Part shown: positions 7,375 through 31,743 of the stretch, piece by piece | Layout: every line of letters starts with the position of its first letter | Position numbering within the stretch: position 1 is the stretch's first letter | Virus record (IMG/VR): IMGVR_UViG_3300045988_082153 | Coordinates: 2,240 to 66,239 of that record | Length of the DNA stretch: 64,000 nt | Source: a virus | Strand: one strand, 5' to 3' | The notes under the pieces: model-generated | Seen by the model: only the letters and a program-made list of their open reading frames with translations | Database searches by the model: none | Told to the model about the DNA's origin: nothing | Translations under genes and position numbers: made by a program

Positions 7375-7410
7375 ACGATTTTTGATGAACAACAAAATAG
7401 AATTGAAATT

Positions 7411-9156: not shown

Positions 9157-9200
9157 AACCCCTTAGGGGTTTCTGAAATAACCCCATAGGGGTTTTTATT
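9157..9200 (+). repeat. 44-bp direct repeat, copy 1 (contains two palindromes)
   Basis: AACCCCTTAGGGGTTTCTGAAATAACCCCATAGGGGTTTTTATT is identical to 9449-9492. Confidence 0.9.
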
Positions 9201-9448
9201 CGCTGTAACGTCTTAAATATCAACGGATAACGGCATTTTGTGTTTTTCGCTTTTTGTCATAGTTCATTAGGGTTTAAGCATGTTCTTTACAATTCGTTTC
9301 AGTGGAGTTTTCTGTTTTAAGTCGTTGATTACTTGGAAAATTATGTAGTTGTCGAGGGGTTTATTTACGGTTGATTTTCATGCAGTTAAAAAAACGGGTA
9401 AGGGGTTTTATAAATAACCCCATAGGGGTTTTTGTTTTGCGTTTTAAT

Positions 9449-9492
9449 AACCCCTTAGGGGTTTCTGAAATAACCCCATAGGGGTTTTTATT
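9449..9492 (+). repeat. 44-bp direct repeat, copy 2
   Basis: Identical to 9157-9200. Confidence 0.9.
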
Positions 9493-10554: not shown

Positions 10555-11763
10555 ATGAGTAATTGGACAGAAGAACAGCAGGAACAGTACGAGCAGGGCA
10601 ATGATGGTGGATATACCCCACCTAAAGGTTCGCTTGACTGGGCCGAGCAGCCTACACAGCCAGAGCCAGCACCGAAAGGGACGGAGGCATGGACCGAGCA
10701 GCCTACACAGCCAGAGCCAGCACCGAAAGGGACGGAGGCATGGACCGAGCAGAACAGCGGAGGCAATGCACCGGAGCCGTCGGAGTCGAAAGAACCACCA
10801 AAGACAGATGTGGCACCACCTGCCGACAAGCCAGCCGGTGTGTCGCCACACAACGACACGATGGGCTACGACCAGCAGATAGCAGCCTTGCAGGAAGCCG
10901 CTAACCGCGTGAAGCCGGAAACCGAGGAGGAACGCAAGAAGAGAGAACGCAGAGAGAAGTCAGCGAAGATTGTTTCAGCTGTCAGCGACGGTCTGCAAGC
11001 GTTGAGCAACCTTTTCTTCACTACTCGCGGTGCTCCTAACATGTATGACCACAAGGAGGCAAGCCAGCTCACGCCATTGCAGGAGAAACTGGAGAAGCTG
11101 AAAGCTGAACGACAAGCCAACGCGGACAAATACCTCCAGTATTCACTCAAAATCGGTGACGCACAGAATGAGCGTGCCAAGACCTTGCGAGAGATGGAAG
11201 CTGAGCAGGAAAAGCAAAAATTGGCACGTGAAAAGGCACAACGTGAGCAAGAAGAGCACGGATGGCTTGCGGCATTGCAGCCAGACAAGCAGCGTGAGCA
11301 AGCTGGTAAGGCTACTAAAGCCGAACAGGAGGCTGTTACCGCCAAGGCAGAAGCGGACAATGCTCCTGATCTCTACAAGGCAAAGGTTGATACCGAAAAG
11401 GCACGAGGTGAGGCACAGAGAGCGTCGGCTGCATCAAGCCGGGCAGCGGCTACAGACCATTATGCTTCGGCAAGAGCGCACGACCGCTCCAACAACGACG
11501 AGTTCAGTGCATGGGACGAGAATGGACGCGAACACAAGTTCAGAACGGCAGCAGCTGCGGAGGCTTTTGCCAAACAGCACGGCACATTCGAGGAGACCGA
11601 TGTCACCTCTACAAGCACAACTGACAGCGAGACCAACGGCAAGTCCACTACTACCTACAAGAAGAAAAGTGGCTATGCCAAGCGCGTAGTTCCCGATAAT
11701 ACGCCCCCAAGCAGAAGACGCGGAGGCAATAAAGATAATACACCACCAAGCAGAAGAAGATAA
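10555..11763 (+). CDS. low-complexity coiled-coil virion protein candidate with internal repeats
   Basis: EQPTQPEPAPKGTEAWT occurs twice. E/K/A/Q-rich middle region. C-terminal DNTPPSRRR occurs twice. The stop overlaps the start of the giant ORF (TAATG). Confidence 0.7.
   Translation: MSNWTEEQQEQYEQGNDGGYTPPKGSLDWAEQPTQPEPAPKGTEAWTEQPTQPEPAPKGTEAWTEQNSGGNAPEPSESKEPPKTDVAPPADKPAGVSPHNDTMGYDQQIAALQEAANRVKPETEEERKKRERREKSAKIVSAVSDGLQALSNLFFTTRGAPNMYDHKEASQLTPLQEKLEKLKAERQANADKYLQYSLKIGDAQNERAKTLREMEAEQEKQKLAREKAQREQEEHGWLAALQPDKQREQAGKATKAEQEAVTAKAEADNAPDLYKAKVDTEKARGEAQRASAASSRAAATDHYASARAHDRSNNDEFSAWDENGREHKFRTAAAAEAFAKQHGTFEETDVTSTSTTDSETNGKSTTTYKKKSGYAKRVVPDNTPPSRRRGGNKDNTPPSRRR
10645..10746 (+). 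repeat. perfect 51-bp tandem duplication (2 copies) inside the CDS
   Basis: 10645-10695 is identical to 10696-10746 (GAGCAGCCTACACAGCCAGAGCCAGCACCGAAAGGGACGGAGGCATGGACC). Confidence 0.9.
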
Positions 11764-14700
11764 TGGCACAAGTAAACGATAATGACGACATCAAGTGGCT
11801 CTACGGCAAACTGAAAGCCAAGGGCTACAATATTGGCAGTGAAGCAGAGTTCAAGTCTTCGCTTGCCAACGGTGAAGACCGCAAGTGGTATTACGAGAAG
11901 GCCAAGGGCATGGGGCTTGACATGGGCAACATGGCCGACTTCGAGAGTATGTATGCACCAAAGGCGGCACCGGCACCCAAGAGGAAAGCCCCATCTTCTG
12001 GACAGCGGAGGCCAGCCTCAGCCGTTTCGGCATCCCCGGAACAGCCAAAGCAGCAGAAGCCGAAGGGCACGCCTATGACGGAGCAGGACAAAATCCGCAT
12101 GAGCTTGCAGATGGGCCAGATGAAGCAGCAGGTGCAGCAGGGCATTGCCAACACCAATGCCAAGATTGGTCGCATGATGGAGCCGTTGACACAGAAAGGA
12201 CGCGAGCGACGCAGACTTGGAGAGTTCCAAGCGCGTATGGCTGGCACTCCTACTCATGTCGTCGGCTTCAACACCGCATCCCCGGCTCCAGCAAGTAGTG
12301 GCGCACGTGGCGGCAGTCGGCAGAAGCCGGTGCAGAGCGAGCAGTCGCCTCAGCCATACGGCGTGAAGTATGAGAACGGCAAGGCGAAAACCCAGTGGGT
12401 ATTGCCCGACGGTACGCTCACTACATCACTTATAGAGGCCAACCAAGCCGAGTATGAGGCAAGAACGGCACGTCTCGCCCACCAATTCCAAAACCGTATG
12501 AAGGAGAACGGACTTGACCCTAACAAGCCCGAGGACGTTCGCAAACAGGCGCAGCTGGACTATGAGGCTCCTATGCGAAAGGCCATTGAAGACGAGTGGC
12601 AGCGTGCCGAAGCCGAGGACAGAGCGGCTGATGAGGCGTACCGCAAGGATATGGAACGTGCTGAAGGTGGCAGTTTCTGGGATAGGTTGAAGAAATCTAT
12701 CACTCCTCTTGGTCCCGATGGTATGCCATTGCGACGAGGTGACGAGACTTTGCGCGACATCAAACGAGCAGCCAAGCGTCAGGACACGTTCAATCTGGAG
12801 AAGATGGCGCAGTCGGTGTTGCAGAATATGCCACAGGAGTATAAGGATAATCAGATGCTGAACTACAGCCGCTATTTCCGCGAGCATCCGTCGGAGCTGA
12901 AAGGCAGAACGGTGTCGCAAGCTGCAAAGGAAGCCCTGCAAGGCGAGGTGTACCACGCTACGTATGAGCGTGCAGTGCAAGCACGAATGCCTAAGAGTAA
13001 GACGGAGTTCCTTCTTCGCAAGGTTGCAGACCAGCCTTTCTTCTCACAGACGATTGCCGACAATATGGCAGCACGTCTATTCTCCCACTCCATCGGAACA
13101 GAGGCCGCCGACATGGACGCGATGAGCAGATATGGCACAGATCATCGTGCGCTCGACATCACTGGTACCGTTTTGAATATGGCTATTGACCCGACTACCT
13201 ATATTTCGGGTGGTGTTGGTAGCTTTGCAGGTAAACAAGCCTTGAAACTGAGTGGCAAAATGGCACTTAAAGGCGCAAGCAAGGAAGCTGCAGAGCGTTA
13301 CGTCGGTCGTACACTTGCCGGACGTATGGTTGCAGGAGTGGCCGCAGGTTCTGCCAACTTCGGTACATTCGAGGGCTTGAAGAACATGCAGCAGCAGATG
13401 AGGCTGGGCGGAACATTGAACCCGGAAACTGGCGAGTATGAGTTTTCAGCTGGCGACATGTTGAAGGCGACCGGGCACGGCATGTTGCTCGGTTCGGTTA
13501 CCGGTACCCTATCTCCAGTGTTGGGCAATGTGTCTGACAAGTTGGTGAAGGCCACCGAGAGCACGGCTGGCAAGGTGGGCATCCGTGCAGGAGAGCTTAT
13601 GACCTCTACTGTTGCCGAGGGAACTATTTTTGCTACTCCCGAATGGATCGAGAACGCACAGTTAGCAGACGACGACCCAAGAAAGCGCAAGGCTATGGAC
13701 ATCTGGACGGACAACATGGCTATGATGTTGGGTTTCAAGGTAAGCCACGGCATCAAGTCGGCACCACAGGTTATTGCCGGTCTTCGTCCTATAGCTGAGC
13801 CTAAGACCATGGAGGAGCGCAACCGCAACCGAAGAAGTTTTGCAGAGAGACTACGTAAGCGCATGGATGCGAGTCCGCGTGACCTCGACTTCACCAAGGA
13901 GGAACGTGAGGAACTCAGACGCAACGGATATGGTGACCTTGCATCGCTCTTCACTCGCACACCTAAGCAGCCGACAAAACCAAAAGCCAAGCCGACCATG
14001 ACGGACGGCAAAACCATGACCTTTGACGTTGACTACCAACATGCAGAGGCCAAGCGTGTGAGCAATCCGGAGTTTGACGGCTACGAAGCTATGGAACGCC
14101 TCATGCAGGACCCGAACGTCAGTCAGAGCGCAAGAGCGAAGGCATATTATATCCTCACTGGACGTATGTTGCCGATGGGCACCGTCACTGGTTATACAAC
14201 CAATAAGGATGCGAACGGCGTGACTGTACAGGCTGTGACCGCACAAGGCGAGGTTGTAACGAGCCGCCACTTCAAAACTGAGGAAGGGGCAAAGAAGGAG
14301 GAGGCCAACATCATGCGTCAGGCCGAGCTTAATAGTGTGGACGTTGGTGAACGCTACAAGGAAGCAGCCGCCAATGCCAAGGTTGTGCAAGCCGCTGTTG
14401 AGTCTGTTGCACCCGGTGCCGACTTTGCCACTGTCATGCGCAACTACAAGGTTGTGAAGGAGGGCGACAAGGATGCTATTGCGGCCTATGGCAAGATGGT
14501 TGAGGATATAGACCGCGCCATTGAAGCCAACAAGACAATGGCAGACGGTGAACGTCCGGAAGCCATCCGCGCATCAATCAAGGAGGAAACCGGCGTGGAC
14601 GTTGACGCTACACTACGCAAGGAGCCGAAAAACCGCACCGAAGAGGAGCAAGCAGCTGTAGAAGACTATATCAAGCGTTTGTTCCCAGAACAGAAGAGCG

Positions 14701-17700
14701 AGGAGGCAGGAGCCAGCGCAGAGGCAGAGCAGCCTATGTCGGAGGCAGAGTCAGCCGCCGCAGCCGCATACGACCAAGCACGTCTGCTTTGGGATAAGGT
14801 GGAGAAAGGCGATACCGACGCTAAGGCCGAGGTAGATGCCATTACTTTGCGTATGCAGGAGGCTTACCAGATGTGTGAGGATGCCTTCGGTGCTGACGCT
14901 GAAATGCGCATTGCAGAAATAAACGAAGACCCTTGGCCGCTTGTCAACAATCCGGAACTAAGCGAAGACCAGCAGGACGCTGTACTCTACTATGTCAATG
15001 CCAAGGCAGCAATGGAGGGCGTTATGGACGCTTCCAATGAAGCCGCCGACGGCAAGCGCAAGGAGGTTGAAGCCAATGTGGAGCGACACACCCATAAGGA
15101 TATGGGCGTTGTCCAGCCTGCAACCATGAAGGTTGACGACAAGCCGGTGTACGTTGTCAAGGGCAATGTCGTGATGCTCCCCGATGGTTCCGGCATTGAC
15201 GTGCGCAATTCGGATCAGAGTATTGTTATCTGTGATGCAGAGACTGGCGAGTATAAGTTTGCCAGCCCGGACCAACTGTTCTCTCTTGGTGAGGCCATCG
15301 ACCCACAGACAGAACTCGATGAGGCATACGCAAACATTCAAGCCGAGCACGAAACCGTGCTTGGTGTACCAGAAAACGGTGAAAACGTACAGGGAAACGG
15401 TGAAAACGTATCACAGCTTACCGATGAGCAGTTGCAACAGTACGCCCATAGTGCCTTCAATGAAGCCACACAGAGCAACGGTATCACCATTCCGCAAGAG
15501 CAAGCCGAGCAGTTGCAGCAGCACAACCAACAGATGTTGGAGCAGGAACAACAGCGCAAGGAAGAGGAGGCAAACCGCCAGCCTACCGCATTGGAGCATG
15601 TACCCATCAACGAGGAAACCGGTGAACCGATGTTTGAGAAGGCAGACCGCGAGACAGCCCTTGATGCCCTCAATGAGGTTACCGGAGGTAACGATGAAAA
15701 TACTACCGCCATCGTGAGAGCGCAAGTAGAACAGGCTACCAAGGCACTTGAAGCGTTGAAGAAGAAGGAACCCACAAAGAAAGCTCCTTCTCTGAAAGGT
15801 TCACCAATGGCAATGGTAAAGGCGCAGCAGGAAGCAGAGGCCAACTACAACACCGCCATGGAAGAGTATAACGCCCAAGTAGCCGCAGCAGAAGAGAACT
15901 TGAACGCATGGTCGCGCATCAACTCCCTTATGAATGACAGAAAGCGTGCTATCCGTGAGCAGCAGGAGGCAGAGCGCAAGGTTCGCGAGGAAAAGCTACA
16001 CGCCGAAGCCGTTGCACGTCTGGAGGAAGACAAGCGCATTGCCGCTGAGAAAGCAGCCGAGCAAGAGGCCGTCGGCACTCATGCCGTGAACCCGAAGATA
16101 AAAGCAAAGTGGGACGGAGCCACCAAGGTTGAGGGCAATCCTAATGCTATCACCCTTGCAGATGGTTCTACAATCCGTGGTCACTACGTCCTCACTGAGG
16201 CAGGAGCAGCCACAGCCAGCCATGACGTGAACAATGCCTACGAGCCTACTGAAGGTTTCCCGGTTGATGAGAATGGTGAGAGCGTGAATGACCGTGACTA
16301 CAAGCGTGACAAAGACGCGCAGCGCATTGTTAGGGATATGGCAGACAGCTACGACAGCAGAGCTTTGCAGACACCAGTCATTGTCAGCAAGGACGGCGTT
16401 GTGCTTTCGGGCAACAACCGCACTATGTCGGGCGAAATTGCAGCAAAGAACGGCACAGACAAGGCGTATGTGGACCACTTGCGCGAGTTTGGAGCCATGT
16501 TCGGTTTCACTCCCGAGCAGATAGACGGCATGCAACATCCGCGTGTTGTCTTTGTTCCAGATGAGGAACTGCCATACGATGCAAGTACGTTTGCACGCTT
16601 CAACGCAGAACAGCAGAAGAAGCAGAGCAAACCTGAGCACGCCGTGAAACTTGGCAAGATTGTTCCTGACAATGTGTTCACAAGCATCACCAATGACATC
16701 AGCCGCTTTGACCGCATGTCGGACTACTATGCCGACGACAAATCAGTGGCTTCTGCCATCAGTCAGTTGTTGGATGCAGGAGTTATTAACGAAATGCAGT
16801 TGCCGGAGCTTCGCACTGGCAATGCTTTGTCGGCAGCAGGTAAGGAACTTATCGAGAACACACTTATAGGCAAGGTCTTCCAGACTTCGCCCGATGCCGT
16901 GCGTCAGATTATCAGCACACTGACACTTCGTCAGTCTGTTGTTATGGGCTTGAACGAGATTGCCAATAACCGCACACTTGCCAAGAGCGGCTATGACCTT
17001 AGCAAGGAATTGGCAGCAGCCGTTGATCTTGTGAGTCGTGCCAAGTCTGACTCGCCCGAAATCTATAAGGAAGGTATGCCGGTATCTCCTTACGGCAGAC
17101 AGAAAGGGCTGTTTGACGACGAATACGGAGACAGTCGTGTAACCGATGGCGTTACGTTGCTCCTTGCCGACCTGCTGAACAGCGGAAAGCCGAGCGACTT
17201 GCGCAAGGTTCTCTCTACATACAATAATGAGGCTGCATCACCTGCTGCAGGTCAGATAGACATGTTTAGCGGTGACGTGAGCTCTAAGGAAGAAATTCTC
17301 AAAAATGTAAACGAATATTTCAGAAATGCTACACCAAAAGAACAACAAGCCCTCATCGACGCAGCCGTTGCAGAACGCAAACGGAGAGCAGAAGCCGCAG
17401 AGCCAGCTGGAGGAGACGAGGCAAGCGAACAAGCTAAGGTTGTTGCTGGGAGCGATGCAGAGCCTCAACAGCCAGTCGTAGCCAGTGAAGAACCAGCTAA
17501 GGGTAACAATCCCGATGCCGACGCATTGGCGAAGGAAGCCGAAGAAAAACTGAGCGAGCGCATCACCGACACAGACGACGAGTGGACGGAGCCAAGCGAA
17601 TATGGCGAAATCTACAAGCATCGTATGTTCGTTGATGGCAAGGAAGTTATCAAGGTTGACGCTCCTGACAAGAGCAAGAATTATCCCGGAACCTATTATG

Positions 17701-23700: not shown

Positions 23701-26700
23701 AGAACTTTGATGATATGGGCATTGATGCTCTGCTCATTGACGAGGCGCACGAATACAAACACCTCGGTTTTGCAACAGCCATGCAGCGCGGTGTGAAAGG
23801 TGTTGACCCTTCATACAGTAAGAAGTCGCAAGGCGTGTACTTGAAGACGCAAGCCATATTGGAGAAGAATAACGGTCGCAATGTTATCTTCGCCACTGGT
23901 ACGCCTATCAGTAATACAGCAGCAGAGATTTGGACTTTCATGCGTTATCTCATGCCAAAGGACACCATGAAGGAATACGGTATCTACTACTTTGACGACT
24001 TTGTGCGCAACTTCGGCAATATACAGCAGATGCCAGAGTTCAACACAAGCGGCAAGTTCAAAGAAGTGAACCGTTTTGCAGGATATGTGAACCTGCCCGA
24101 ATTGGTTCGTATATGGTCAGGGGTAGCAGACACCGTGCTGACCAAAGACCAGACGGAACTTGTGAAGAAGATACCAGAAATGGAGGGCGGCAAGGCGCAG
24201 GACATCTATTTACCACAGACACGCGCTCTTCGCAGTGTGATGAAATATGTGCGTGAAGAACTTGAACGCTTTGACCAGATGAGCGGCAAGGAGAAGAAGG
24301 AAAACAGCAGCATACCTCTCACTATGTATGGTATTGCTCAAGGAGCCGCTGTTGATGCCCGACTTGTGGAAATGCACGCAGAGGATGATCCGAGGAGTAA
24401 GACTAACGAAGCCGTACGCCAAACCTTGCGTTCGTTGAAAGAGACTGACGACTATAAGGGTACTGTAGCCATCTTTGCCGACCACTACCAGAATAAGCGC
24501 AGCGGTTTCAACCTGTATGAGGACATCAAGAAGAAACTCATCCAGCAGGGTATTCCCGAAAGCGAGGTTATCGTAATGAAGCCCGGCATGACCATCAAGA
24601 AGAAGTTGGAAATCTTCGACAAGGTTAACCGAGGCGAGGTGCGTGTTATTCTCGGTAGTACTGCTACCCTTGGTACTGGTGTGAACATACAGGAACGTCT
24701 GCACACCCTTATACACCTTGATGCGCCAAACCGTCCGATGGACTACACGCAACGCAACGGCCGCATCTTGCGACAGGGCAATCTGCACAAGCAATGGAAT
24801 AAACCAGTCCGTGTGCTTCGTTTCGGTGTGGAAGATAGTCTTGACGTAACTGCATATCAGCGATTGAAGACCAAAGGTGCGATTGCTGATAGTGTTATGG
24901 AGGGTGACCGACTGATGCAGGACAGCATGAATAACCGTGTGCTTGAAGAGGAAGAAGATGTGTTCGGCGACACAGTGGCCCAACTCTCGGGTAGTGAATA
25001 CGCCCTGCTGAAAAACAATGCGGAGAAGAATGTGCGCAAGTACGAAAGTCGCAAGAAGCAGTGGGAAGCCGACCAAACCTATATTCACAATGCCAAGCCA
25101 AAGTTGGAGGGACAGATAAAGGCAGCAGAGCAACGGGCGGAGGAAGCTAACGCCCAGCTGCTTGCAGTGCAAAAGGCATTCCCCGATGGCAAGTTCACAG
25201 AGATAACTGTTGGCAAACTGAAATTTGCTTCGGTTGATGCCATGGCTGACTTCATCAAGGAACACAACAAGAAAATCCTCGATGCAGTAAAGGCGATGAA
25301 AGAGAACCCCGGCAATAACGTCCAGACAAATACTCTTACTTTGTCATTGGGAGGTTACGACTTTGTTGTCAAGACAGAGATGTCGCGAGAGACTGTGAAC
25401 AATGGCGGACTGCTGTTTGCCGAGATACATCGTAGAATGAGCTACTCATGCCCTGAACTTGGTCTGAATAATGTTCCTGTAAAGCAGTCGCTATTGCGCA
25501 ATGCCGTTGAGGACATCACCGAGAATGTAATCACAGGTAGGGACTTTGCCGAGCGGTTCGACATTGCTACACGTATGGTACAGCACGGCAAATCAGAGTT
25601 GGAACAACTAAAGCAGCGTGAAGGTAAGCCGTTTGAGTTTGGAAAGGAACTTGAAGAAGCCAAGCGTCAGCTTGAGGAATATTCCGAGGCCATGAAGGTA
25701 GAAATGGCAGAAAAGGAGAAGAAATATGCCGAAATGGACGCAAGTGTAGAAGCTGCTTCAGATGTAGTCACCGACGATGAGGACGAGACCGCAGAAGACA
25801 AGACGAAGTTCCGTTTGCTTGATGAGGATGATCCAAAGGCGATGGAGCTGGAGTCTTTGCCGGAGAGTGAGTTGGTTCCTGTTTACCGTAATGTGCAAGC
25901 CTTTGAGGATGATGCACTGGGTTCACCTATGGCATTTACCGATGCCGAGACAGGCGAGCGCAGAACATTGGAAGGCAGACGTTGGAACTATTCTGCACCT
26001 CCAAAGGTGGAACTCTCCGAGGAGCAGCAGCGCAAGTTGGACGAACTCAACAAGAATGGCTACATCATGGTTGACGGCAAAAAGAGTACAGAGTTGCAGA
26101 TCAATGACGGTCTGAAATTCGTGAAGCCTAAGACCAAGGAGGCACAGTTGCAGTACTTCCTGAAGAAGAACCCCGAAGACAAGGGCTTGTGGGCAGCATA
26201 CGACCCATACGACCATGCCATTGAAACTCCGCTGAACACGCAGTTTGGCGAGGCATACAAGAGACCGAACCTTGTTGTGGTGCGTAGCCTCATCCCAAAA
26301 TCGGAGATAGACGAGCCGTTCCACGCAGACTATGCTCTGTTGCCTACCGGTGCCCATCAGTGGAACAATGGTCGCACACTGTATCTTTCACGCTGGAGCA
26401 AGATAGACAAGGTGCTTACCCGTGAGGAGGAAGCTAAGCTCATTGACGAGTACTGGAAGAAGCATCCGGGAAAGCGTGAGGAGCTAAAGACCCACCGTGA
26501 CTACAACCGTTTTGTGCCACAAGTGCGCATAGAGTTGGAGAAGATGGGTTACCGCTTTGAACTTGATGGCAAGGAGTTGACACCGGAGGAGAGTCTTGCA
26601 CTCGACAAGCAGAACTGGGAAAGCCGCGATGTTATCCCCGGACGCGAGGGACACACTCCATTCGTCAGCAACGAAGACATAGCACGCATCAATGCGAAGA

Positions 26701-29700
26701 TGGCCGGCAAGTGGGTAGGCGAACCGAAGGAAGCAATGGAAAGTGCAATGAGCGATAGAGTGACCGAGTTGTCCGAACGTCTGCATACTCCAGTGCGCAT
26801 CATACGTACAGAGGAAGAAGTGGCTGCATTACCTTCCGTGCGCCAGCGCAGAATGAAGGGTAGCTTCAATCCTATGACCGGCGAGGTGACTATTGTTGTT
26901 CCCAACAATGCTAACATGGCAGACATTGAGAATACGTTTGTGCATGAGGTTGTGGGTCACGATGGTTTGCGCGTGCTGTTCCCTGATGAGGCTAAGCTGA
27001 ACAATGCCCTTGATGAACTCTATCGTGTGTCTAAGGACGAGATACGCGGTACCATTGACCGCATGGCGCAGAAGATGTACGATGCCGAGGTGGACCGCAT
27101 ACGTGAGAAGAAACGCAAGGAGCATGTAGCCAATGGAGAGGATGCCAACGCTTCATACTATGCAGACATGGCAGCAGCACATGCCGAAGCCGGAAAGAAG
27201 CGTGAGCAGTTCAAGCGTGATGCAACAGAGGAATATGGAGCCGACCTTGCCGGACGTATCGGTGAGAAAGGCTTCGAGATGATGAGTGCCGAAGAACTTA
27301 CGTTCTGGGGCAAGTTGAAAGCTATGCTCCAAAAAGCTCTACAAAAATTGTTGGACGGATTGAAAATCCCCGGCAAGAGAAAGTGGGGTGATAAGGACTG
27401 GGCGTTTGTTCTGCATGAGGCATACAAGCGTAAGAAGAATGGTGGTAAGCCTACTGTGTTCGATGCTGCTGATACTGAGGTTATGCGCAGAAGAACTGGC
27501 TTTGGAGATACTAAGTTCAGTGATGGAAAGCGTGAGCAACAGACTGCTAACGAACGTTTCAACAATGAACTTACACGCTATCAGAATGGCGAAATGGATA
27601 AGAACGAAATGCTACATCTTGGCAGACCACAAGGTGTAATGCGTACTTTCCTCCCAAACTTGCCTATTGTTATGCGTCAGCGTGTAATAAAGAAAGGTTC
27701 GGAGAAGAAGCATGACGTAGATGTATCTGCCATAATGAACATGCCGCAGCACTTATCTTCGCCTATATTCGTGTTCCAACGTAGCGAAGACACCATTGGC
27801 GTACTTACTGACATGAGAGACCGCAACGGCAAAAACGTATGTGTGGCTATTGAATTGAAGCGACAGATACAGCAAGGTGCGGAATATCTCGAAGTGAATG
27901 ATGTGCGTTCGTTCCACGGCAGAGAATTCAAGAACATCGTAGAACCGATTGCGAATAACAAGACATTGAAGTGGGTGGATAAAGAAAAAGGACTCGCTTA
28001 TCTCTCCTCAGCGTCACAACCGGTTCAGCAGGAAATAGACAAGCAAGTCCTTGATACTGCGACAAAGGTAGTCAAAGATTTTGTAAATCCCAAAGTTTCT
28101 GACGAAAATATTGCAGATGAGGGCATTATGTTCCGCGATGGTGACATGGGACTTGAAGAAACCATCACTAAGATGAAGGTTGAGGCAAGCCAAGCGAACG
28201 CCGACAACTGGCAAGCCAAGCAGGACGCAATGAGAGCCATCGGTGGCAATCTGAACAAATTGCGTCAGGCAATGGCACGTCAGAGAGAGTATGACCTATC
28301 AACCGTTAAGAGCATAACAGACCTTGCAAAGGTGTTGCTTGAAAACGGATTGCTCGATGATCTGAGCAAGTATGAGACAAAGCGCATCCTATCAGCCGTG
28401 AACAATGTACATGGCAAGCAGGACGTAAGTGATTACGTACAGAAGGTTATGGACATCATGGTTGACAACCAGCTACGCATGGGAGCTAACCAGCTGGGCA
28501 AACTACTTTCCATCCGTGGAAGCCGCGTTGACGCGCGAGGTATTGAGGTGCAAGGACAGCTTGACCCAGAAGGCCAGCGTATAGCGCAGGTGGTTAGGAA
28601 AGCTACTTCCTTACCAAAGGAGAACATAGAGGAGCGTATTGCAGACTGCACCAATCGTATGAGTAGTGACGACAATGCCGTAGCCGAGGAAGCAGCTATC
28701 GAGTACAGCGGTCTGTTGCTTGCCCATCAGTTTGTAGAGGACATCACCGAAAGCAAGGCAGAGGAAAAGGCTCTTCGTGAAAGCATTAAGGAAGCCAAGG
28801 CCGACTTGGATGCCGGAACGATGGAAGCCGATGCTTACCGTGAATACGTGGAGTCAACCAACGATGCCATCCGTCAGAATAAGATAGAGCGAGCCGAAGC
28901 CTACCGCAGCATAGTGGAGCAAGCAGGCGGTGTTCTTGGTGGCAGCGTTGAGCGAGCCAAGGCATGGCGTGAGGCAGAGAAGCAGCGCGTTGAGACCATC
29001 CATCACAATGCCAACTCCGATATGACCGGCAGACCTAACGACGAGCATCACAAGGAAAGCAAGGCACAGAAGATAGCCAATAACAGTATAGTGCGCTTTG
29101 TTCTTGCACCTTTAGGCACGTTCGACCAGATGCTGAGAATGTTCGGAAAGAAAAGCGTGAACGGTGAGGGCTACTTGTGGAACCGCTATATGCGTGGATG
29201 GGTTGAGGCTACCGAAAAGGAGTACACCGGTTATCAAAACGCCTTGAAGACGCTCGACGAGAAGGTTAGCGACCTATTCGGCAAGAAGATGAAATGGGGC
29301 GACCTATTCTCTTTGGAGCGCAACCTTCCAAAAGCGACCGTTACCTTCTGGGACGGTGGCGAGCAGAAGGCACACGAACTGACACAAGGCAACCTTCTGT
29401 ATATATACATGGTTGACAAGATGGCAGACGGCCGCATGAAGTTGCGCCGTATGGGCATCACCGAGGAAGATGTGGAGAACATAAAAGAATTTGTTGATCC
29501 TCGCTTCTTAGAACTTGCCGACTGGATGCAGGACGAGTTCCTTGTGGAAAAACGCAACGAGTACAACGAGGTGCATAAGCGCATGTTCGGTGCTTCAATG
29601 GCAGCGATTGAGAACTACTTCCCTTTGAAGATACTTGCCAATGCGAGAATTGAAGAAGTGGACGTAGCCGACGATACAACCGACACCGCATTACCGGCGA

Positions 29701-31685
29701 CCTCAACCGGTAGCATCATCAAGCGCAGACGCAACAATCTTGCCCTTGACGTGATGGGAGCAGACGCATTCAGCGTTATACTCGACCACATTCAGCAGAT
29801 GGAACGTTGGGCATCCTTTGCAGAGTTCAATCGCGACTTGAACACCTTGTTGTCATACAAGCGTTTCCGCAACCAAGTTATGAACATGACGAGTGTTTAT
29901 GGTGGTGGCAAAACTCTGTGGAAGAATTTCCGCAATGTGTGCAGTATGGCCGCAGGAGCCTATCGCCCACCAATCGCAGCCCTTGACAAGGCCGCAGTGA
30001 ATGTGGCGAAGGGCGTAACGGCAGCCAAGGTTAGTTTCAGAGTGTTCACGGCATTAAAGCAGTTCCTCTCTATGCCAGCTTATCTTTCTGACAGCAGCCC
30101 TGTATATCTTGCAGGAAACATTGCCAATCCGATAGGAGCTTGGAAGTGGTCAATGGAAAACCTTCCACTCTTCGAGAAGCGTTGGAAGAGCCGCATGGCA
30201 GGAGACCCAAGACTGATGAAGAGTGAAATGGACTGGAAGATGTGGCAAAACCGCGCTGTTGAAATAGCCTCACGTATCGGTATGTCTCCTAATGCCTTTG
30301 TCGATGCACTGACAGTTGCCATAGGTGCACACTCGATGTATCAGACCAAGAAGAAGAAATATCTTCGTTACGGCTATGATGAAGAGACGGCAGAGAAGCG
30401 AGCCAAGCAAGACGCTACTATTCTGTTCAACCAGACACAGCAGTCGAGTGAAAGCGCGTTCCTCTCTACGATGCAGACCGACCGTTCATGGTTGAGTGTT
30501 CTGTTCACTGTGTTCAGAAACTCTTCGATGTCGTACACACGTCAGCTGTATGATGCACTCCGTAACCTCAAACACCGCTTTGAACCCGGTTACAAAGGAC
30601 TCACAGAGGAGTATCTTGCCAAGCAGATGCGCAGAGATGGCATAGACCCAGACAAGGCCGACCAGAACGCCAAGAGCGAGTATAGAAGAAGCCTGATGCG
30701 TGATATAGTCCGCGTAGGCGTGTTTGGCTATCTGTTGCAGTTTGCTTGGAACTTGGGAGCCTATCTGCCCTATCTCCTCTTAGGTGACGACAAGGACGAG
30801 AAGAGCGACATGTGGCATGACATCTTCTGCCATACTATGTTCGGCAGTATAGAAGGCTTGACTGGAGGTGACGTGATGAGTGCTGTAGGTAATGGCTTTG
30901 CTAAAGGCGAAGGTTTGAACCTATTCTCCGCTTCAAAGGATATGCCTCTTAGTTCAGACTTGCAGAACATTGTAAACAAATGGAACAAAGACAAGGTTGC
31001 CGCCATGAACGACGTGACCAACTTGATGGTTCAGTCTGGTATAGGTGTCAATCCCCAATCGCTGACAGATGCAGTGGTTGCCATCATGGACTACTGTGGT
31101 GACGACGCAAACACCTCTCGCGAGTGTGCCCTGCTTATCACGCGCATCATCAACTGCCCACAAAGTCAGATCGACAAGATTTATTTTGACGAGCTTAACG
31201 CAACGGCAGCAGAGGCGCAAGGCATGACCCCGGCAGAGATAGCCGAGCGATATGCCCGATATAAGATGCACAGAGGCGCACCGTTGACCGGATGGGCGTA
31301 CACTGATGAAGCTCGCGACTCCGTAATGACTGCCCTGCAGAACCGAGTGCTTACGAAAGCCAAGGAGAAGTTGAACAGCAGAATGGAGACTGAGGAAACC
31401 AAACAGTTGCTCAGTGATTACGATGCTGTTGCCAAGCAAGAGACCGCATTGTCGAAGATAAAGAAGACGGACCGTGCAGCCTACCACGAGGGAATGAAGC
31501 AGCTACGCCAGTCGAACGACATGCGCCAGCACATGCGCTTGAAGCGATACAAGCATGACATGAATGAACTCACGTCGAAGTATCTACGCTGCAAGAGTGC
31601 AGAGGAACGAGACTCGATTGTCAGCACGATGTTCAGTACACGTGCGAAGATGCTTGAAGACATCGACAGATTGAAGCAACAATAG
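11763..31685 (+). CDS. giant polyvalent protein (6,640 aa): DarB-like methyltransferase-helicase core plus ParB-like, zincin, MuF_C-like and hydrophobic modules
   Basis: A single uninterrupted ORF that starts on the stop of the upstream gene and ends 58 nt before the portal gene. Domain motifs are listed as separate features. Confidence 0.9.
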   Translation: MAQVNDNDDIKWLYGKLKAKGYNIGSEAEFKSSLANGEDRKWYYEKAKGMGLDMGNMADFESMYAPKAAPAPKRKAPSSGQRRPASAVSASPEQPKQQKPKGTPMTEQDKIRMSLQMGQMKQQVQQGIANTNAKIGRMMEPLTQKGRERRRLGEFQARMAGTPTHVVGFNTASPAPASSGARGGSRQKPVQSEQSPQPYGVKYENGKAKTQWVLPDGTLTTSLIEANQAEYEARTARLAHQFQNRMKENGLDPNKPEDVRKQAQLDYEAPMRKAIEDEWQRAEAEDRAADEAYRKDMERAEGGSFWDRLKKSITPLGPDGMPLRRGDETLRDIKRAAKRQDTFNLEKMAQSVLQNMPQEYKDNQMLNYSRYFREHPSELKGRTVSQAAKEALQGEVYHATYERAVQARMPKSKTEFLLRKVADQPFFSQTIADNMAARLFSHSIGTEAADMDAMSRYGTDHRALDITGTVLNMAIDPTTYISGGVGSFAGKQALKLSGKMALKGASKEAAERYVGRTLAGRMVAGVAAGSANFGTFEGLKNMQQQMRLGGTLNPETGEYEFSAGDMLKATGHGMLLGSVTGTLSPVLGNVSDKLVKATESTAGKVGIRAGELMTSTVAEGTIFATPEWIENAQLADDDPRKRKAMDIWTDNMAMMLGFKVSHGIKSAPQVIAGLRPIAEPKTMEERNRNRRSFAERLRKRMDASPRDLDFTKEEREELRRNGYGDLASLFTRTPKQPTKPKAKPTMTDGKTMTFDVDYQHAEAKRVSNPEFDGYEAMERLMQDPNVSQSARAKAYYILTGRMLPMGTVTGYTTNKDANGVTVQAVTAQGEVVTSRHFKTEEGAKKEEANIMRQAELNSVDVGERYKEAAANAKVVQAAVESVAPGADFATVMRNYKVVKEGDKDAIAAYGKMVEDIDRAIEANKTMADGERPEAIRASIKEETGVDVDATLRKEPKNRTEEEQAAVEDYIKRLFPEQKSEEAGASAEAEQPMSEAESAAAAAYDQARLLWDKVEKGDTDAKAEVDAITLRMQEAYQMCEDAFGADAEMRIAEINEDPWPLVNNPELSEDQQDAVLYYVNAKAAMEGVMDASNEAADGKRKEVEANVERHTHKDMGVVQPATMKVDDKPVYVVKGNVVMLPDGSGIDVRNSDQSIVICDAETGEYKFASPDQLFSLGEAIDPQTELDEAYANIQAEHETVLGVPENGENVQGNGENVSQLTDEQLQQYAHSAFNEATQSNGITIPQEQAEQLQQHNQQMLEQEQQRKEEEANRQPTALEHVPINEETGEPMFEKADRETALDALNEVTGGNDENTTAIVRAQVEQATKALEALKKKEPTKKAPSLKGSPMAMVKAQQEAEANYNTAMEEYNAQVAAAEENLNAWSRINSLMNDRKRAIREQQEAERKVREEKLHAEAVARLEEDKRIAAEKAAEQEAVGTHAVNPKIKAKWDGATKVEGNPNAITLADGSTIRGHYVLTEAGAATASHDVNNAYEPTEGFPVDENGESVNDRDYKRDKDAQRIVRDMADSYDSRALQTPVIVSKDGVVLSGNNRTMSGEIAAKNGTDKAYVDHLREFGAMFGFTPEQIDGMQHPRVVFVPDEELPYDASTFARFNAEQQKKQSKPEHAVKLGKIVPDNVFTSITNDISRFDRMSDYYADDKSVASAISQLLDAGVINEMQLPELRTGNALSAAGKELIENTLIGKVFQTSPDAVRQIISTLTLRQSVVMGLNEIANNRTLAKSGYDLSKELAAAVDLVSRAKSDSPEIYKEGMPVSPYGRQKGLFDDEYGDSRVTDGVTLLLADLLNSGKPSDLRKVLSTYNNEAASPAAGQIDMFSGDVSSKEEILKNVNEYFRNATPKEQQALIDAAVAERKRRAEAAEPAGGDEASEQAKVVAGSDAEPQQPVVASEEPAKGNNPDADALAKEAEEKLSERITDTDDEWTEPSEYGEIYKHRMFVDGKEVIKVDAPDKSKNYPGTYYEIDGKQFGDLYEVANYIDGNEQPLSAKIEAASAEVNTDPTEAQKEAGNYKKGHVQVGTFDITIEQPQGSVRKGTDADGKQWESKMNNTYGYIRGAVGVDGDHIDVFLSNDIDGWNGRKVYVVDQYNPDGSFDEHKVMLGFNDQDEAKGDYLANYEQGWENGRRIDITGVNLEDFEKWIESSKRKTKPFGEYSSVKKDVVEINTPEEAGYSITPSTYTNKKGKTSDVSLLTFDNDLTADQERAVKEFAKERTGEGRFAPARGWKDRESGGWMFRSEEDARKAAEMVGNEQAVADNQPMTAQELRDAVEPKKPTASKKTAAKKPANRIENVPTEEPIEPEKPKYEVSDEEMNGLMNDIRDILGIGDDEGDAGVKFRDPDELTAEQRQKLMSVGQRLAMAMVERGNESFGNYASMMVKALGDKVRPWLKAFYGGLEYVPGYDKYALTPYEEVKAFDVENFDKPNKDVMAQANMIVEEGKVQVAAEKANKELKATRNEQRKETEKQTAANTDAVAVEAESVASEATALAETSSDEQALAGAAERVDETLNKVNEQLALLGYYEADEVEKDYNEAYGYMRNAEKKAVKDAANLASQLISDLNLSHYEASHSKQTDKKGNRKKKPLAVSNISPIGGDVSIHLPLEEGRELYLTIGVEPRAAKGVDGFGGSDLEVTHIMFRVDHPEGTGNDRYGRNVFVDSNVTYSDLLKQVQREAYKYLIGSGVTNEGEYAAGDKVQYSTDGGRTWTDAVVVQPNDEGGIRIDTGLAPVMWVNAHPDQLRHKPSESAEPKHEAVGDFYEDGINEDAVAALPEDTAIQLHVVDILNPGMTDHSMKSKIESLNTLLPKISDKKLSELDKEYGDDKDMGTHIKAEVARRAKDGGVQPTSSEKPADKPKPASKKNATKKVKPEQPVGDLFAGLFDNTSDNGLQGNDEAVRTETVPADNGGQQQGLRGSKESTRKTVAQEGGRPDGGRGGQSTGKDRAVSAGLHGLTEPKNTRNNHSERGADHAPTSVNGRIEANIKAIELAHELLESGETATPEQMSVLRQFSGWGGLGAAFSDGGYDWKQRERNKKIRELLGEEAYEQAVMSANSAYYTPAYVVDTLWDIANQLGFKGGNILEGSAGIGNILGQMPTTVSERSNIHAIEIDGTSGGILSLLYPDAKVEIQGFEQTRIPNGSVDLAITNVPFVTGLRVNDTTGDSDLSKKFHNIHDFCIAKNVRKLREGGLGIFISSNGTLDNSKALRDWVVNEGGSDFIGAFRMNNKTFGGTTVTSDIIVIRKRVNGQKSAQAIDVSSISGERTAEYEEPGARKAKQLSMDYNKYFIEHPDHMAGEMRFAFEEGDTFRPTSKGLYPVSGKDQGKMLVDFVKSFTEEDSSKATTTDHHDVSLVLDASADGKKLGEMYMKDGQIVLASFGGYYPLEVNDKKIKGHTKQECFTAYAAIKSALADVMQYQTENESDAGLKPLIAKLNKAYDAFVNTYGHFNKNNQLAWLRNDVDYPNVFSLETYKEQGDGKGGVVKTYDKADVMKGRVVEKESEPHPENVKDGVVVSMFKNGRIDVPYIASQLGKSEAEVKREIIDSGLGFEDPTTRQMEVSYQYLSGNVREKLKQAEANNENGEYSKNIKALQDVVPMNIPAHLIDFTLGSSWLDPKLYDEYVKERTDIDVHFTAAGGTWFMKAPTYGVNVEKNRAMGIVSEMLKKTIMGHELISAAIQNKSIIVSRTEKHYDGTTETITDREATAACAAKIDEIRQDFKDWARGKMQSDADLSARMEQEYNDRFNNYVPMSIPDDFVPEYFGGATHKFKMRSHQGKAIVRGTMQPLLLAHEVGTGKTFTLISTAMEMRRLGTARKPMIVVQNATVGQFAASAKELYPNAKILTLEDNDRNAEGRKNFYAKIKYNDWDMIVVPQSTFEFIPDSDERQMQFVQDKIDEKMLVLEQMREADSSGRDPITRRAEKELADLQAEMAALSEGISKKRTANNEKKKAVAKQNAAVKAQEMLDRRTDDVENFDDMGIDALLIDEAHEYKHLGFATAMQRGVKGVDPSYSKKSQGVYLKTQAILEKNNGRNVIFATGTPISNTAAEIWTFMRYLMPKDTMKEYGIYYFDDFVRNFGNIQQMPEFNTSGKFKEVNRFAGYVNLPELVRIWSGVADTVLTKDQTELVKKIPEMEGGKAQDIYLPQTRALRSVMKYVREELERFDQMSGKEKKENSSIPLTMYGIAQGAAVDARLVEMHAEDDPRSKTNEAVRQTLRSLKETDDYKGTVAIFADHYQNKRSGFNLYEDIKKKLIQQGIPESEVIVMKPGMTIKKKLEIFDKVNRGEVRVILGSTATLGTGVNIQERLHTLIHLDAPNRPMDYTQRNGRILRQGNLHKQWNKPVRVLRFGVEDSLDVTAYQRLKTKGAIADSVMEGDRLMQDSMNNRVLEEEEDVFGDTVAQLSGSEYALLKNNAEKNVRKYESRKKQWEADQTYIHNAKPKLEGQIKAAEQRAEEANAQLLAVQKAFPDGKFTEITVGKLKFASVDAMADFIKEHNKKILDAVKAMKENPGNNVQTNTLTLSLGGYDFVVKTEMSRETVNNGGLLFAEIHRRMSYSCPELGLNNVPVKQSLLRNAVEDITENVITGRDFAERFDIATRMVQHGKSELEQLKQREGKPFEFGKELEEAKRQLEEYSEAMKVEMAEKEKKYAEMDASVEAASDVVTDDEDETAEDKTKFRLLDEDDPKAMELESLPESELVPVYRNVQAFEDDALGSPMAFTDAETGERRTLEGRRWNYSAPPKVELSEEQQRKLDELNKNGYIMVDGKKSTELQINDGLKFVKPKTKEAQLQYFLKKNPEDKGLWAAYDPYDHAIETPLNTQFGEAYKRPNLVVVRSLIPKSEIDEPFHADYALLPTGAHQWNNGRTLYLSRWSKIDKVLTREEEAKLIDEYWKKHPGKREELKTHRDYNRFVPQVRIELEKMGYRFELDGKELTPEESLALDKQNWESRDVIPGREGHTPFVSNEDIARINAKMAGKWVGEPKEAMESAMSDRVTELSERLHTPVRIIRTEEEVAALPSVRQRRMKGSFNPMTGEVTIVVPNNANMADIENTFVHEVVGHDGLRVLFPDEAKLNNALDELYRVSKDEIRGTIDRMAQKMYDAEVDRIREKKRKEHVANGEDANASYYADMAAAHAEAGKKREQFKRDATEEYGADLAGRIGEKGFEMMSAEELTFWGKLKAMLQKALQKLLDGLKIPGKRKWGDKDWAFVLHEAYKRKKNGGKPTVFDAADTEVMRRRTGFGDTKFSDGKREQQTANERFNNELTRYQNGEMDKNEMLHLGRPQGVMRTFLPNLPIVMRQRVIKKGSEKKHDVDVSAIMNMPQHLSSPIFVFQRSEDTIGVLTDMRDRNGKNVCVAIELKRQIQQGAEYLEVNDVRSFHGREFKNIVEPIANNKTLKWVDKEKGLAYLSSASQPVQQEIDKQVLDTATKVVKDFVNPKVSDENIADEGIMFRDGDMGLEETITKMKVEASQANADNWQAKQDAMRAIGGNLNKLRQAMARQREYDLSTVKSITDLAKVLLENGLLDDLSKYETKRILSAVNNVHGKQDVSDYVQKVMDIMVDNQLRMGANQLGKLLSIRGSRVDARGIEVQGQLDPEGQRIAQVVRKATSLPKENIEERIADCTNRMSSDDNAVAEEAAIEYSGLLLAHQFVEDITESKAEEKALRESIKEAKADLDAGTMEADAYREYVESTNDAIRQNKIERAEAYRSIVEQAGGVLGGSVERAKAWREAEKQRVETIHHNANSDMTGRPNDEHHKESKAQKIANNSIVRFVLAPLGTFDQMLRMFGKKSVNGEGYLWNRYMRGWVEATEKEYTGYQNALKTLDEKVSDLFGKKMKWGDLFSLERNLPKATVTFWDGGEQKAHELTQGNLLYIYMVDKMADGRMKLRRMGITEEDVENIKEFVDPRFLELADWMQDEFLVEKRNEYNEVHKRMFGASMAAIENYFPLKILANARIEEVDVADDTTDTALPATSTGSIIKRRRNNLALDVMGADAFSVILDHIQQMERWASFAEFNRDLNTLLSYKRFRNQVMNMTSVYGGGKTLWKNFRNVCSMAAGAYRPPIAALDKAAVNVAKGVTAAKVSFRVFTALKQFLSMPAYLSDSSPVYLAGNIANPIGAWKWSMENLPLFEKRWKSRMAGDPRLMKSEMDWKMWQNRAVEIASRIGMSPNAFVDALTVAIGAHSMYQTKKKKYLRYGYDEETAEKRAKQDATILFNQTQQSSESAFLSTMQTDRSWLSVLFTVFRNSSMSYTRQLYDALRNLKHRFEPGYKGLTEEYLAKQMRRDGIDPDKADQNAKSEYRRSLMRDIVRVGVFGYLLQFAWNLGAYLPYLLLGDDKDEKSDMWHDIFCHTMFGSIEGLTGGDVMSAVGNGFAKGEGLNLFSASKDMPLSSDLQNIVNKWNKDKVAAMNDVTNLMVQSGIGVNPQSLTDAVVAIMDYCGDDANTSRECALLITRIINCPQSQIDKIYFDELNATAAEAQGMTPAEIAERYARYKMHRGAPLTGWAYTDEARDSVMTALQNRVLTKAKEKLNSRMETEETKQLLSDYDAVAKQETALSKIKKTDRAAYHEGMKQLRQSNDMRQHMRLKRYKHDMNELTSKYLRCKSAEERDSIVSTMFSTRAKMLEDIDRLKQQ
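16080..16700 (+). other. ParB/sulfiredoxin-like domain within the giant ORF
   Basis: TEAGAATASHDVNNAYEP .. QTPVIVSKDGVVLSGNNRTMSGEIAAKNG (DGxxLSGNxR-type motif at about 16376-16450). Confidence 0.5.
17835..18235 (+). other. inorganic-pyrophosphatase-like module within the giant ORF (tentative)
   Basis: NYKKGHVQVGTFDITIEQPQGSVRKG..YGYIRGAVGVDGDHIDVFLS..VVDQYNPDGSFDEHKVMLGF. The GDxxDVF pattern recalls PPase-fold modules seen in phage or plasmid polyvalent proteins. This is recalled from memory only. Confidence 0.35.
20690..21560 (+). other. N6-adenine DNA methyltransferase domain within the giant ORF
   Basis: LRQFSGWGGLG; motif I ILEGSAGIGNILG (about 21033-21075); motif IV DLAITNVPF (about 21225-21248). 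Confidence 0.8.
23050..24900 (+). other. SNF2/DExH helicase domain within the giant ORF
   Basis: LLAHEVGTGKTFTLI (motif I, about 23155), LLIDEAHEYKH (motif II, about 23729), FATGTPISNT (III), ILGSTATLGTGVNIQ (V), YTQRNGRILRQGN (VI, about 24749). Confidence 0.85.
26900..27000 (+). other. zincin-like HExxH metallopeptidase motif within the giant ORF
   Basis: NTFVHEVVGHDGLRVLF (HEVVGH at 26943-26960). Confidence 0.55.
27610..27935 (+). other. MuF C-terminal-like (polyvalent-protein associated) module within the giant ORF
   Basis: LHLGRPQGVMRTFLPNLPIVMRQRVIKKGSEKKHDVDVSAIMNMPQHLSSPIFVFQRSEDTIGVLTDMRDRNGKNVCVAIELKR..LEVNDVRSFHGRE matches the pattern I recall for the MuF_C family. Confidence 0.5.
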
Positions 31686-31743
31686 TTAAACAACAAAGGA
31701 CGGTGCAAGGAATTACCTTTGCACCGTCCCAAATTATAAAATT

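Follow-up and report, generated by a model that had tools for sequence, protein, structure and literature searches.

A probable polyvalent protein of 6,640 residues with a DarB-like core, encoded beside the portal gene of a temperate gut-Bacteroidales phage

A single 19.9-kb frame upstream of the portal gene

We analysed a 64,000-nt stretch of viral DNA (IMG/VR record IMGVR_UViG_3300045988_082153, positions 2,240–66,239; hereafter the window), 31.1% of which is taken up by one giant open reading frame (ORF; 11763–31685, + strand, 19,923 nt). The ORF opens with ATG and runs for 6,640 aa with zero internal stops, encoding a 742-kDa protein that is probably a phage-type polyvalent protein, delivered together with the DNA of a temperate gut-Bacteroidales phage to counter host defences. 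Proteins of this kind are already known, and giants are common in this phage lineage. From the N terminus, the chain is composed of a tandem N-module, a lineage-specific N-region, a DdrB-type ParB domain, an InPase domain, a DarB-like core, a conserved domain without assigned function, an HExxxH domain, a variable cassette and a C-terminal module (C-module). The start codon overlaps the stop of a 402-aa ORF (10555–11763) as TAATG and the stop lies 58 nt ahead of a portal-like ORF starting at 31744, an arrangement already recognized in an earlier reading of the letters of this DNA (the original prediction). That reading had labelled the product of the upstream ORF a virion protein, a label that finds no support, with zero Pfam or PHROG matches. 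Comparing 12 kb of the giant ORF with phage and plasmid collections by megablast likewise returned zero matches.

The uninterrupted frame, also claimed from the sequence, recurs in related viruses. We collected 78 IMG/VR loci carrying the C-terminal 1,200 aa, each with 10 kb of upstream flank; the frame is open through the whole flank in ~65 of these. Stitching N-side and C-side loci that lie on the same contig yielded 39 reconstructed relatives, 34 of which hold a single ORF of 6,260–6,780 aa. The size, described as exceptional, is so among phages at large; within this lineage it is ordinary, and longer members exist elsewhere in the family. The ratio of non-synonymous to synonymous differences per site (pN/pS, Nei–Gojobori method, window versus 20 full-length relatives) is 0.16 overall and spans 0.08–0.31 across all 250-codon bins, a sign of purifying selection over the whole length. 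With no bin above 0.31, the entire 19.9 kb therefore evolves as coding sequence, unannotated thirds included.

A near-identical relative (L003; Logan SRR23389271_1407) has its locus called as three genes, of 1,703, 3,063 and 2,067 aa. It departs from one continuous frame only by a 2-nt deletion (L003 759, corresponding to window 17067–68) and one in-frame TAA (L003 9956–9958), past which the same frame resumes; the broken gene could reflect decay, a tolerated split or read-through. In a second relative, L002, what looks like a split is 100 N of scaffold gap. The idea that relatives carry a split gene was rejected on these grounds, with intact giants present both in IMG/VR contigs and in an exhaustive library. 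The giant ORF is a real gene, encoding a single, selected 742-kDa polypeptide.

Enzymatic domains and the DarB-like core

Motifs read from the translation by eye lie in the order originally given: KWLY (aa 11), KWYY (41), EGSAGIGN (3093), TNVPF (3157), GTGKT (3801), DEAH (3993) and QRNGRILRQG (4330). The first enzymatic module is a DdrB-type ParB/Srx domain (16161–16541, +; aa 1467–1593), proposed as a ParB/Srx-like motif and matched by Pfam ddrB-ParB (PF18763, E 2e-6) at 28.3 bits, where the gathering score is 27.6; the same family is annotated on L003. The next, foreseen as a PPase-like module, is an InPase (type I inorganic pyrophosphatase-like) domain (17820–18236, +; aa 2020–2158), with a full-length match to PF18823 at 178.6 bits. 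Single-sequence PDB searches of the giant protein gave one match only, between this domain and residues 637–763 of a phage portal of known structure (9b41 chain L, 'gp19 Portal'; E 1.6e-23), where they make up the C-terminal domain. A domain of the InPase type can therefore be a physical, built-in part of the virion or portal vertex.

The DarB-like core (20727–25046, +; aa 2989–4428) consists of a predicted gamma-class (EcoKI/TaqI-like) N6-adenine methyltransferase, a linker and an SNF2/SF2 helicase. It contains methylase motifs I (LEGSAGIG) and IV (NVPF) and helicase motifs GTGKT, DEAH, TGTP and QRNGR. Motif I lies 65 aa before motif IV, which is the gamma-class order. P1 DarB is collinear with aa 2989–4428 (E 5.8e-40; BLASTP and phmmer), phmmer pairing DarB 662–1206 with aa 3605–4148 and DarB 1480–1603 with aa 4302–4428. 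The methylase motifs stand in register with those of DarB (LEGSAGIG/LEPSAGTG and TNVPF/GNVPF), as do helicase motifs I, II and VI (GTGKT/GLGKT, DEAH/DEGH and QRNGR). Just ahead of the methylase, aa 2989–3033 align with DarB residues 47–90 (domain E 5e-5), a stretch that is not matched by the LPD36 model. Pfam places ResIII, SNF2-rel_dom and Helicase_C at aa ~3776–4339, and phrog_10089 ('DarB-like antirestriction') covers aa ~1870–5500, individual 1,200-aa segments scoring as high as 1,393 bits. Both halves of the methyltransferase–helicase pair proposed from motifs are upheld, the helicase through Pfam and the DarB alignment and the methylase through the aligned motifs I and IV, with Pfam N6_Mtase below threshold.

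Outside these domains, relaxed Pfam searches of ten short segments gave nothing new in aa 1–1450, 1590–2020, 2160–2960 and 4400–5300, and NCBIfam returned sub-threshold helicase matches only. No counterpart of P1 DdrB was found in the giant protein by phmmer, and no lytic transglycosylase, lysozyme or other peptidoglycan hydrolase domain by Pfam, PHROG or NCBIfam.

A candidate metallopeptidase domain and recurrent linker motifs

The core is followed by a conserved domain without assigned function (25860–26732, +; aa ~4700–4990), of predicted mixed alpha/beta structure. It occurs in about 80% of relatives at a mean identity of 66–71%, is modelled by AlphaFold2 (AF2) at moderate confidence and has zero family matches. 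Adjoining it is a candidate zincin-like metallopeptidase domain (26730–27512, +; aa ~4990–5250), with HEVVGH at aa 5061–5066 (nt 26943–26960) and LDELY downstream. The pattern HExxxHxGLR...LDExY is conserved across alignments of relatives, and the AF2 model (predicted local distance difference test, pLDDT, 75–93) displays a topology of helix, three strands and motif-bearing helix. An HExxH zincin had been predicted. In the literal sense HExxH occurs once, as HEYKH at aa 3996, overlapping the DEAH box; what survives of the claim is the conserved HExxxH at aa 5061, in a domain that is a candidate zincin. A weak hhalign link (probability 37%) connects the HExxxH domain to the HELFH region of phage LASTA. 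HEXXXH metallopeptidase variants, together with proposed autoprocessing, have been described for polyvalent proteins (PMC5512222).

A junction-like motif, [KMR]F[RS]D[GPN], occurs three times (aa 2351, 5251 and 5456) against 0.03 expected, and its relaxed form five times against 0.5 expected (aa 2250, 2351, 4682, 5251 and 5456; nt ~18510, 18813, 25806, 27513 and 28128); the statistic is post hoc, two of the sites having served to define the motif. All five sites fall in linker-like stretches at module boundaries, and diverse relatives retain those at aa 2351 and 5456. Purely as a hypothesis, the (K/M)F(R/S)D(G/P) sites are candidate processing or linker sites.

A widespread C-terminal module

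The chain ends in a conserved module of ~1,170 aa (28170–31682, +; aa 5470–6640), which is the most conserved part of the giant protein (mean identity about 90% among relatives). AF2 models it as all-alpha (pLDDT 80.2; predicted TM-score, pTM, 0.69). The original prediction had a C-terminal region of roughly 1,200 aa with hydrophobic helices: the region and its helical nature stand, the helices being below membrane grade. Scanning the giant protein in 19-residue windows, the maximum Kyte–Doolittle mean is 1.2, only mildly hydrophobic and short of transmembrane grade, and this applies to the hydrophobic segments proposed elsewhere in the chain as well; no membrane-grade helix is found by this measure.

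Foldseek finds no match for the C-module in the PDB (best E 0.038, TM about 0.06), N4 mini-vRNAP being among the non-significant ones. Searching BFVD instead gives 87 matches at E<=1e-3, down to E 2e-39 and over >1,000 columns. These are terminal pieces of polyvalent proteins from uncultured phages, with annotations including ART-PolyVal, MuF_C, nuclease and acetyltransferase. An exhaustive HMMER search retrieves 1,311 representative clusters at E<=1e-3, 590 of them at E<=1e-30, and the module is C-terminal in every one of the best 150. The median protein among these 150 measures 4,918 aa; 20 proteins reach 6,000 aa or more, and six are longer than the window protein (6,640 aa), with a maximum of 7,091 aa. 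Neither the C-module nor the ~1,000-aa N-region is matched in a Pfam library that includes the InPase, ddrB-ParB, MuF_C and PBECR models of Iyer et al. 2017 (PMC5512222). The C-module is both widespread and structurally unprecedented, going beyond the published accounts we located, and we propose that it acts as a 'carrier' for virion incorporation or translocation.

Homology of the C-module to the PLxRFG-bearing ends of other phage giants was considered and discarded, as an hhalign profile finds nothing in the C-terminal 1,233 aa of LASTA. The PL.RFG motif is absent from the giant protein, in which only PLGTFDQMLRMFG is present.

The N-terminal part

A tandem module of ~30 aa (KWLY/KWYY), followed by a Pro/Ala/Gln-rich linker, opens the protein (11787–11954, +; aa 9–64). 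A tandem of the same pattern, in about five sequence variants, opens all 34 of the 34 full-length relatives. By analogy with the N-terminal 30-aa signal of P1 DarB (PMC9024508), it is a candidate capsid-targeting or interaction signal. Further on lies the lineage-specific N-region (12960–16112, +; aa ~400–1450), a Gly-rich stretch that gives way to charged, helix-rich sequence and has zero Pfam, PHROG or NCBIfam matches. The region is conserved at 36–99% in 66 viral loci; its aa 400–1250 have 46 homologues, every one within this lineage and none with a Pfam domain.

A 153-aa ORF elsewhere in the window (6099–6560, +) has a lipoprotein signal, MKKALALALFAIALVSC, and a C-terminal half homologous to the tandem N-module (32% over 59 aa, pairwise E 8e-7). 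Its distance of ~650 nt to the attachment site or genome end is typical of a moron, and only four related viral contigs (six loci) were found to carry it. From its sequence, the lipoprotein could be a decoy or exclusion factor, or could share a binding partner with the giant protein.

Exchange of cassettes and cores between near-identical phages

Aligned to L003, the giant ORF alternates between blocks that are 96–99% nucleotide-identical and blocks without DNA similarity. One of the latter marks a cassette slot (27507–28148, +; aa ~5249–5462), which is bounded by the junction peptides TKFSDG and IMFRDG and lies just upstream of the C-module; similarity to L003 vanishes exactly over 27530–28093, with flanks 96–99% identical. 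The window carries MuF_C in this slot (aa 5310–5410; PF18819, 62–64 bits), in agreement with the MuF_C-like segment first proposed, and MuF-C is classed by Iyer et al. as a PBECR-type predicted RNase (PMC5512222). Across 38 relatives the slot is occupied by PBECR1 (9), a domain of unknown type (6), MuF_C (6, window included, plus one divergent copy) or PBECR3 (1), is empty in ~14 and holds a deletion remnant in one.

The second exchange concerns the core itself. Relatives whose other modules are 96–99% identical carry either of two methylase–linker–helicase cores, one ~99% identical to that of the window and the other, type B, only ~30/25/32% identical (methylase/linker/helicase). Type B is also DarB-like (phmmer E 2e-53 versus P1 DarB), with NVPF and DECH motifs. 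Both the well-defined cassette slot and the exchange of entire 5.5-kb DarB-like cores as alleles within near-identical backbones go beyond the published accounts we located. Swapping of cores and cassettes among near-identical phages indicates an arms race with host defences.

Relation to known giant phage proteins

P1 DarB (2,255 aa; defence against restriction) shares the fusion of an N6A-methylase to an SF2/SNF2 helicase, collinear over aa 2989–4428, and its gene likewise adjoins the portal gene. DarB lies inside the head at ~40 copies per virion, is targeted to the capsid by its N-terminal 30 aa and is believed to pass into the cell (PMC9024508). Identity is ~21–29%, and the window protein adds about 4,400 residues with other domains. 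The DarB targeting signal lies directly before the methylase, whereas here the methylase–helicase dyad begins ~2,988 aa from the N terminus; the 30-aa signal therefore cannot have an equivalent at this position, and any signal must lie elsewhere.

The closest annotated relative is gp55 of the Bacteroides phage BKO1-TP3 (PQ571269.1; 5,553 aa, 'DarB-like antirestriction'), a temperate phage of Bacteroidales with a genome of ~65 kb. The gp55 gene, too, immediately precedes that of the portal, and the encoded core is 70.7% identical to that of the window over aa 2866–4675. The protein is 1,087 aa shorter, and similarity is undetectable in the first ~900 aa and over aa 5254–6640, implying that gp55 is without the C-module and cassette slot. 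The paper describing BKO1-TP3 is silent on the gp55 gene (PMC12694917), and our literature search returned no description of the giant gene of this lineage.

More distant are the giants of Bcep22-like (JC1 gp69, 4,515 aa; Bcep22 gp75) and Lasta-like (LASTA gp01, 4,433 aa) podophages. These too are encoded in the morphogenesis module, contain a DarB-like core ~28–30% identical over ~1,600 aa and have an HExxH domain after the helicase that is possibly homologous to the HExxxH domain of the window. JC1 gp69, which occupies 22% of the JC1 genome, has been detected in purified virions by mass spectrometry (PMC9144972). The podophages differ in infecting Proteobacteria, in C-terminal regions without homology by hhalign and in the PLxRFG motif, which is theirs only. 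The window protein is ~2,100 aa longer, adds ParB, InPase and MuF_C, and is without a transglycosylase domain.

Comparable domain mosaicism is known from the phage-type polyvalent proteins of Iyer et al. 2017 (PMC5512222), including the mosaic Helicobacter jhp1044 family, with which the window protein shares a vocabulary (DdrB-ParB, InPase, the LPD36-methyltransferase-SNF2 dyad, of which LPD36 is a candidate only here, a candidate metallopeptidase resembling their HEXXXH variants, and MuF-C/PBECR) and a late-gene, portal–terminase setting. Replacement of a whole core in 97–99% identical backbones is documented in the window lineage, not in that survey. The virion RNA polymerase of phage N4 offers a comparison in kind, as a giant podovirus-capsid protein that is injected. 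A metallopeptidase-type domain of the N4 protein is required for encapsidation (PMC5512222). The RNA polymerase module is specific to N4, and there is no sequence or fold similarity to the window protein.

Proposed function and alternatives

The original prediction held the product to be a polyvalent protein related to the P1 DarB methylase–helicase, and the Pfam domains, phrog_10089, the collinear DarB alignment and the portal and terminase neighbours all argue for this. Several unrelated effector domains share one chain (ddrB-ParB, InPase, SNF2/Helicase_C, MuF_C and a DarB-type methylase), encoded by a (pro)phage gene beside packaging genes (the portal gene starting 58 nt past its end and followed by the large terminase, with the integrase on the upstream side). 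By analogy with its homologues, the protein probably travels inside the virion and serves to neutralize the defences of the host. If it behaves as P1 DarB and the Bcep22-like giants do, it would be made late, incorporated in the capsid beside the portal and translocated into the cell along with the DNA. Once inside, the methylase–helicase core would act in cis to shield the newly arrived genome from restriction. Host nucleotides or RNA would be the targets, as infection starts, of the ParB-like, InPase and RNase-like modules. Capsid incorporation and exit would most likely fall to the conserved terminal modules. More speculatively, the HExxxH domain may cleave the polyprotein at the recurring (K/M)F(R/S)D(G/P) linkers.

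Several observations weigh against this account. The ddrB-ParB match barely clears its gathering score, and with Pfam N6_Mtase below threshold on the giant protein, the methylase call rests on motifs and the DarB alignment. Single-sequence phmmer found no counterparts of P1 DarA, DdrA or Ulx in the giant protein (Hdf was outside this search). Neither a transglycosylase domain nor a membrane-grade helix is there to explain the exit of a 742-kDa protein. The HExxxH domain has a best E of 1.2 against the PDB by Foldseek (a weak negative, from a 611-aa, partly low-confidence model), aligns to the P1 DdrB metallopeptidase with an hhalign probability of 0.3% and, as a profile, has zero matches among PDB sequences. 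The break in L003 suggests either that the phage does not strictly depend on an unbroken single chain or that this copy is decaying. Finally, presence in virions is documented only for the homologues JC1 gp69 and P1 DarB, and for the window protein it is a prediction, as are injection and enzymatic activity.

A bolder version makes the giant a self-processing delivery polyprotein, in which the C-module is an unrecognized universal carrier, bringing cargo into the capsid and out by way of the portal, and the HExxxH domain cuts linkers at aa 2351, 5251 and 5456 (with the relaxed motif, at 2250 and 4682 as well), freeing interchangeable cores and RNase cassettes. We regard this version as unlikely. 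The idea that the protein is primarily a DNA-ejection machine we also consider unlikely. In that case the N- and C-modules would form a trans-envelope conduit or internal core (compare T7 gp15/gp16 and the P22 ejection proteins) with the enzymes as passengers; it is compatible with the polyvalent-protein reading, and moves the main role from effector delivery to structure. Such a role would suit a C-module that is the most conserved part of the chain (about 90% identity among relatives), large, all-alpha, C-terminal throughout the best 150 of 1,311 representatives, common to polyvalent proteins with differing cargo and the place where the most hydrophobic stretches of the protein concentrate. 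The gene also adjoins the portal, and a homologue from a Tenacibaculum phage is labelled 'structural protein'. Against a structural role, Foldseek finds no fold match to solved ejection or internal-core proteins in the PDB, the mild hydrophobicity (Kyte–Doolittle maximum 1.2) leaves no membrane-grade helix, Pfam, PHROG and NCBIfam return no peptidoglycan hydrolase domain, and the differing C terminus of BKO1-TP3 gp55 means that the C-module is not indispensable for this virion type.

It is very improbable that the gene belongs to a prophage defence or restriction–modification-like system (BREX, DISARM or type I-like), expressed by the lysogen against other phages in place of being virion cargo. 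The phage is temperate, with an integrase, one homologue is labelled 'Type I restriction enzyme' in BFVD, and there are weak matches to DrmD, DrmA, DpdE, PbeA and PLD-helicase models. These reach 17–52 bits against curated cut-offs of 610–1,200 and mostly cover ~100–170 aa of generic helicase C-domain (NCBIfam DrmD 35–37 bits against a cut-off of 610; PADLOC 17–34 bits on the helicase C-domain), whereas the DarB-like PHROG scores 1,393 bits. The start is translationally coupled to the upstream ORF, the gene is co-oriented with and directly before the portal, homologues are detected in virions (PMC9144972, PMC9024508), and the fused InPase, DdrB-ParB and MuF_C/PBECR domains are hallmarks of phage-type polyvalent proteins (PMC5512222). 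There is a negligible chance that the long frame arose in assembly, or by fusion of adjacent genes or pseudogenes, and is not translated as one protein: the three ORFs at the L003 locus and a word-indexed protein database that lists only fragments of <= 2,130 aa would fit it, but L003 departs by just its deletion and one TAA, the L002 split is 100 N, 34 independent assemblies out of 39 show a single frame of 6.3–6.8k aa, full-length relatives of 4,000–7,091 aa are numerous in the exhaustive library, and pN/pS is at most 0.31 per bin.

Taken as a polyvalent protein, the giant leaves the current picture unchanged; it carries the concept to the top of its size range, in a clade that is important in the microbiome. 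That a common temperate lineage of gut Bacteroidales phages spends about a third of its genome on one protein implies a strong pay-off, which is probably the overcoming of dense restriction and defence repertoires in Prevotellamassilia, Prevotella, Muribaculaceae and Bacteroides hosts. The exchange of two DarB-like cores of ancient divergence, and of five or more cassette states, between otherwise near-identical backbones amounts to a natural experiment in effector swapping. The confidently modelled C-module could explain packaging and export of polyvalent cargo, and BKO1-TP3 and the P. timonensis prophage (see below) offer cultured entry points to the portal transit of a 0.74-MDa protein.

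Genome context and hosts

An integrase gene (7321–8907) lies beside the attachment site and is followed by two unknown ORFs and then the giant ORF. Three identical terminator-like hairpins, AACCCCATAGGGGTT and then a T-run, sit at 9180–9194, 9416–9430 and 9472–9486 (+), in the stretch that separates the integrase from the ORFs ahead of the giant gene. Directly downstream of the giant ORF is the P22-like portal gene (31744–33702, +; PF16510, E 3e-44; phrog_156, E 3e-96), followed by a gene for a 709-aa large terminase (33711–35840, −; phrog_2, E 2e-16). Past the terminase come capsid-module genes, a second giant ORF (2,740 aa), a reverse transcriptase, an endolysin and replication or recombination genes. 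In BKO1-TP3 (L001) the gene at the position of the terminase (24971–27085, −) is annotated 'tail spike protein', and the window counterpart matches large-terminase PHROGs; judged from shared gene position, the tail-spike label is a possible mis-annotation.

Within the 58 nt that separate the giant ORF from the portal gene is a perfect 13-bp hairpin (31698–31729, +; −25 kcal/mol, z = −6.0 versus shuffles) without a U-tract, possibly an attenuator or mRNA-stabilizing element.

Just upstream of the integrase, at window ~7093–7251, related contigs stop (L186 at 7251), diverge (L184 at 7198) or start (L083 at ~7093). From these sequence breaks, the interval is probably the phage attachment site (attP) or a genome end, and the window would therefore represent a nearly complete circular or permuted phage genome of ~64 kb. 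Prophage copies occur in a cultured isolate of Prevotellamassilia timonensis (Marseille-P2831) and in metagenome-assembled genomes of Muribaculaceae, Prevotella and Bacteroides from human, mouse and ruminant guts. The predicted source is a temperate gut-Bacteroidales phage with a P22-like portal. Salyersviridae/BV01 was rejected as the phage family, since the 58.9 kb of BV01 contain 75 ORFs, none of them a giant.

A diversity-generating retroelement targeting the second giant ORF

The window also encodes a diversity-generating retroelement, made up of a variable repeat (48244–48353), a template repeat (49198–49307), a reverse transcriptase gene (49343–50899; phrog_1423, E 5e-89) and a target ORF (40164–48386), which is the second giant ORF (phrog_14959; zero Pfam or PDB matches). 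The two repeats are 110 nt long and differ at eight positions, at all eight of which the copy just upstream of the reverse transcriptase gene has adenine. The variable copy forms the final ~45 codons of the target ORF, whose product is probably a receptor-binding protein.

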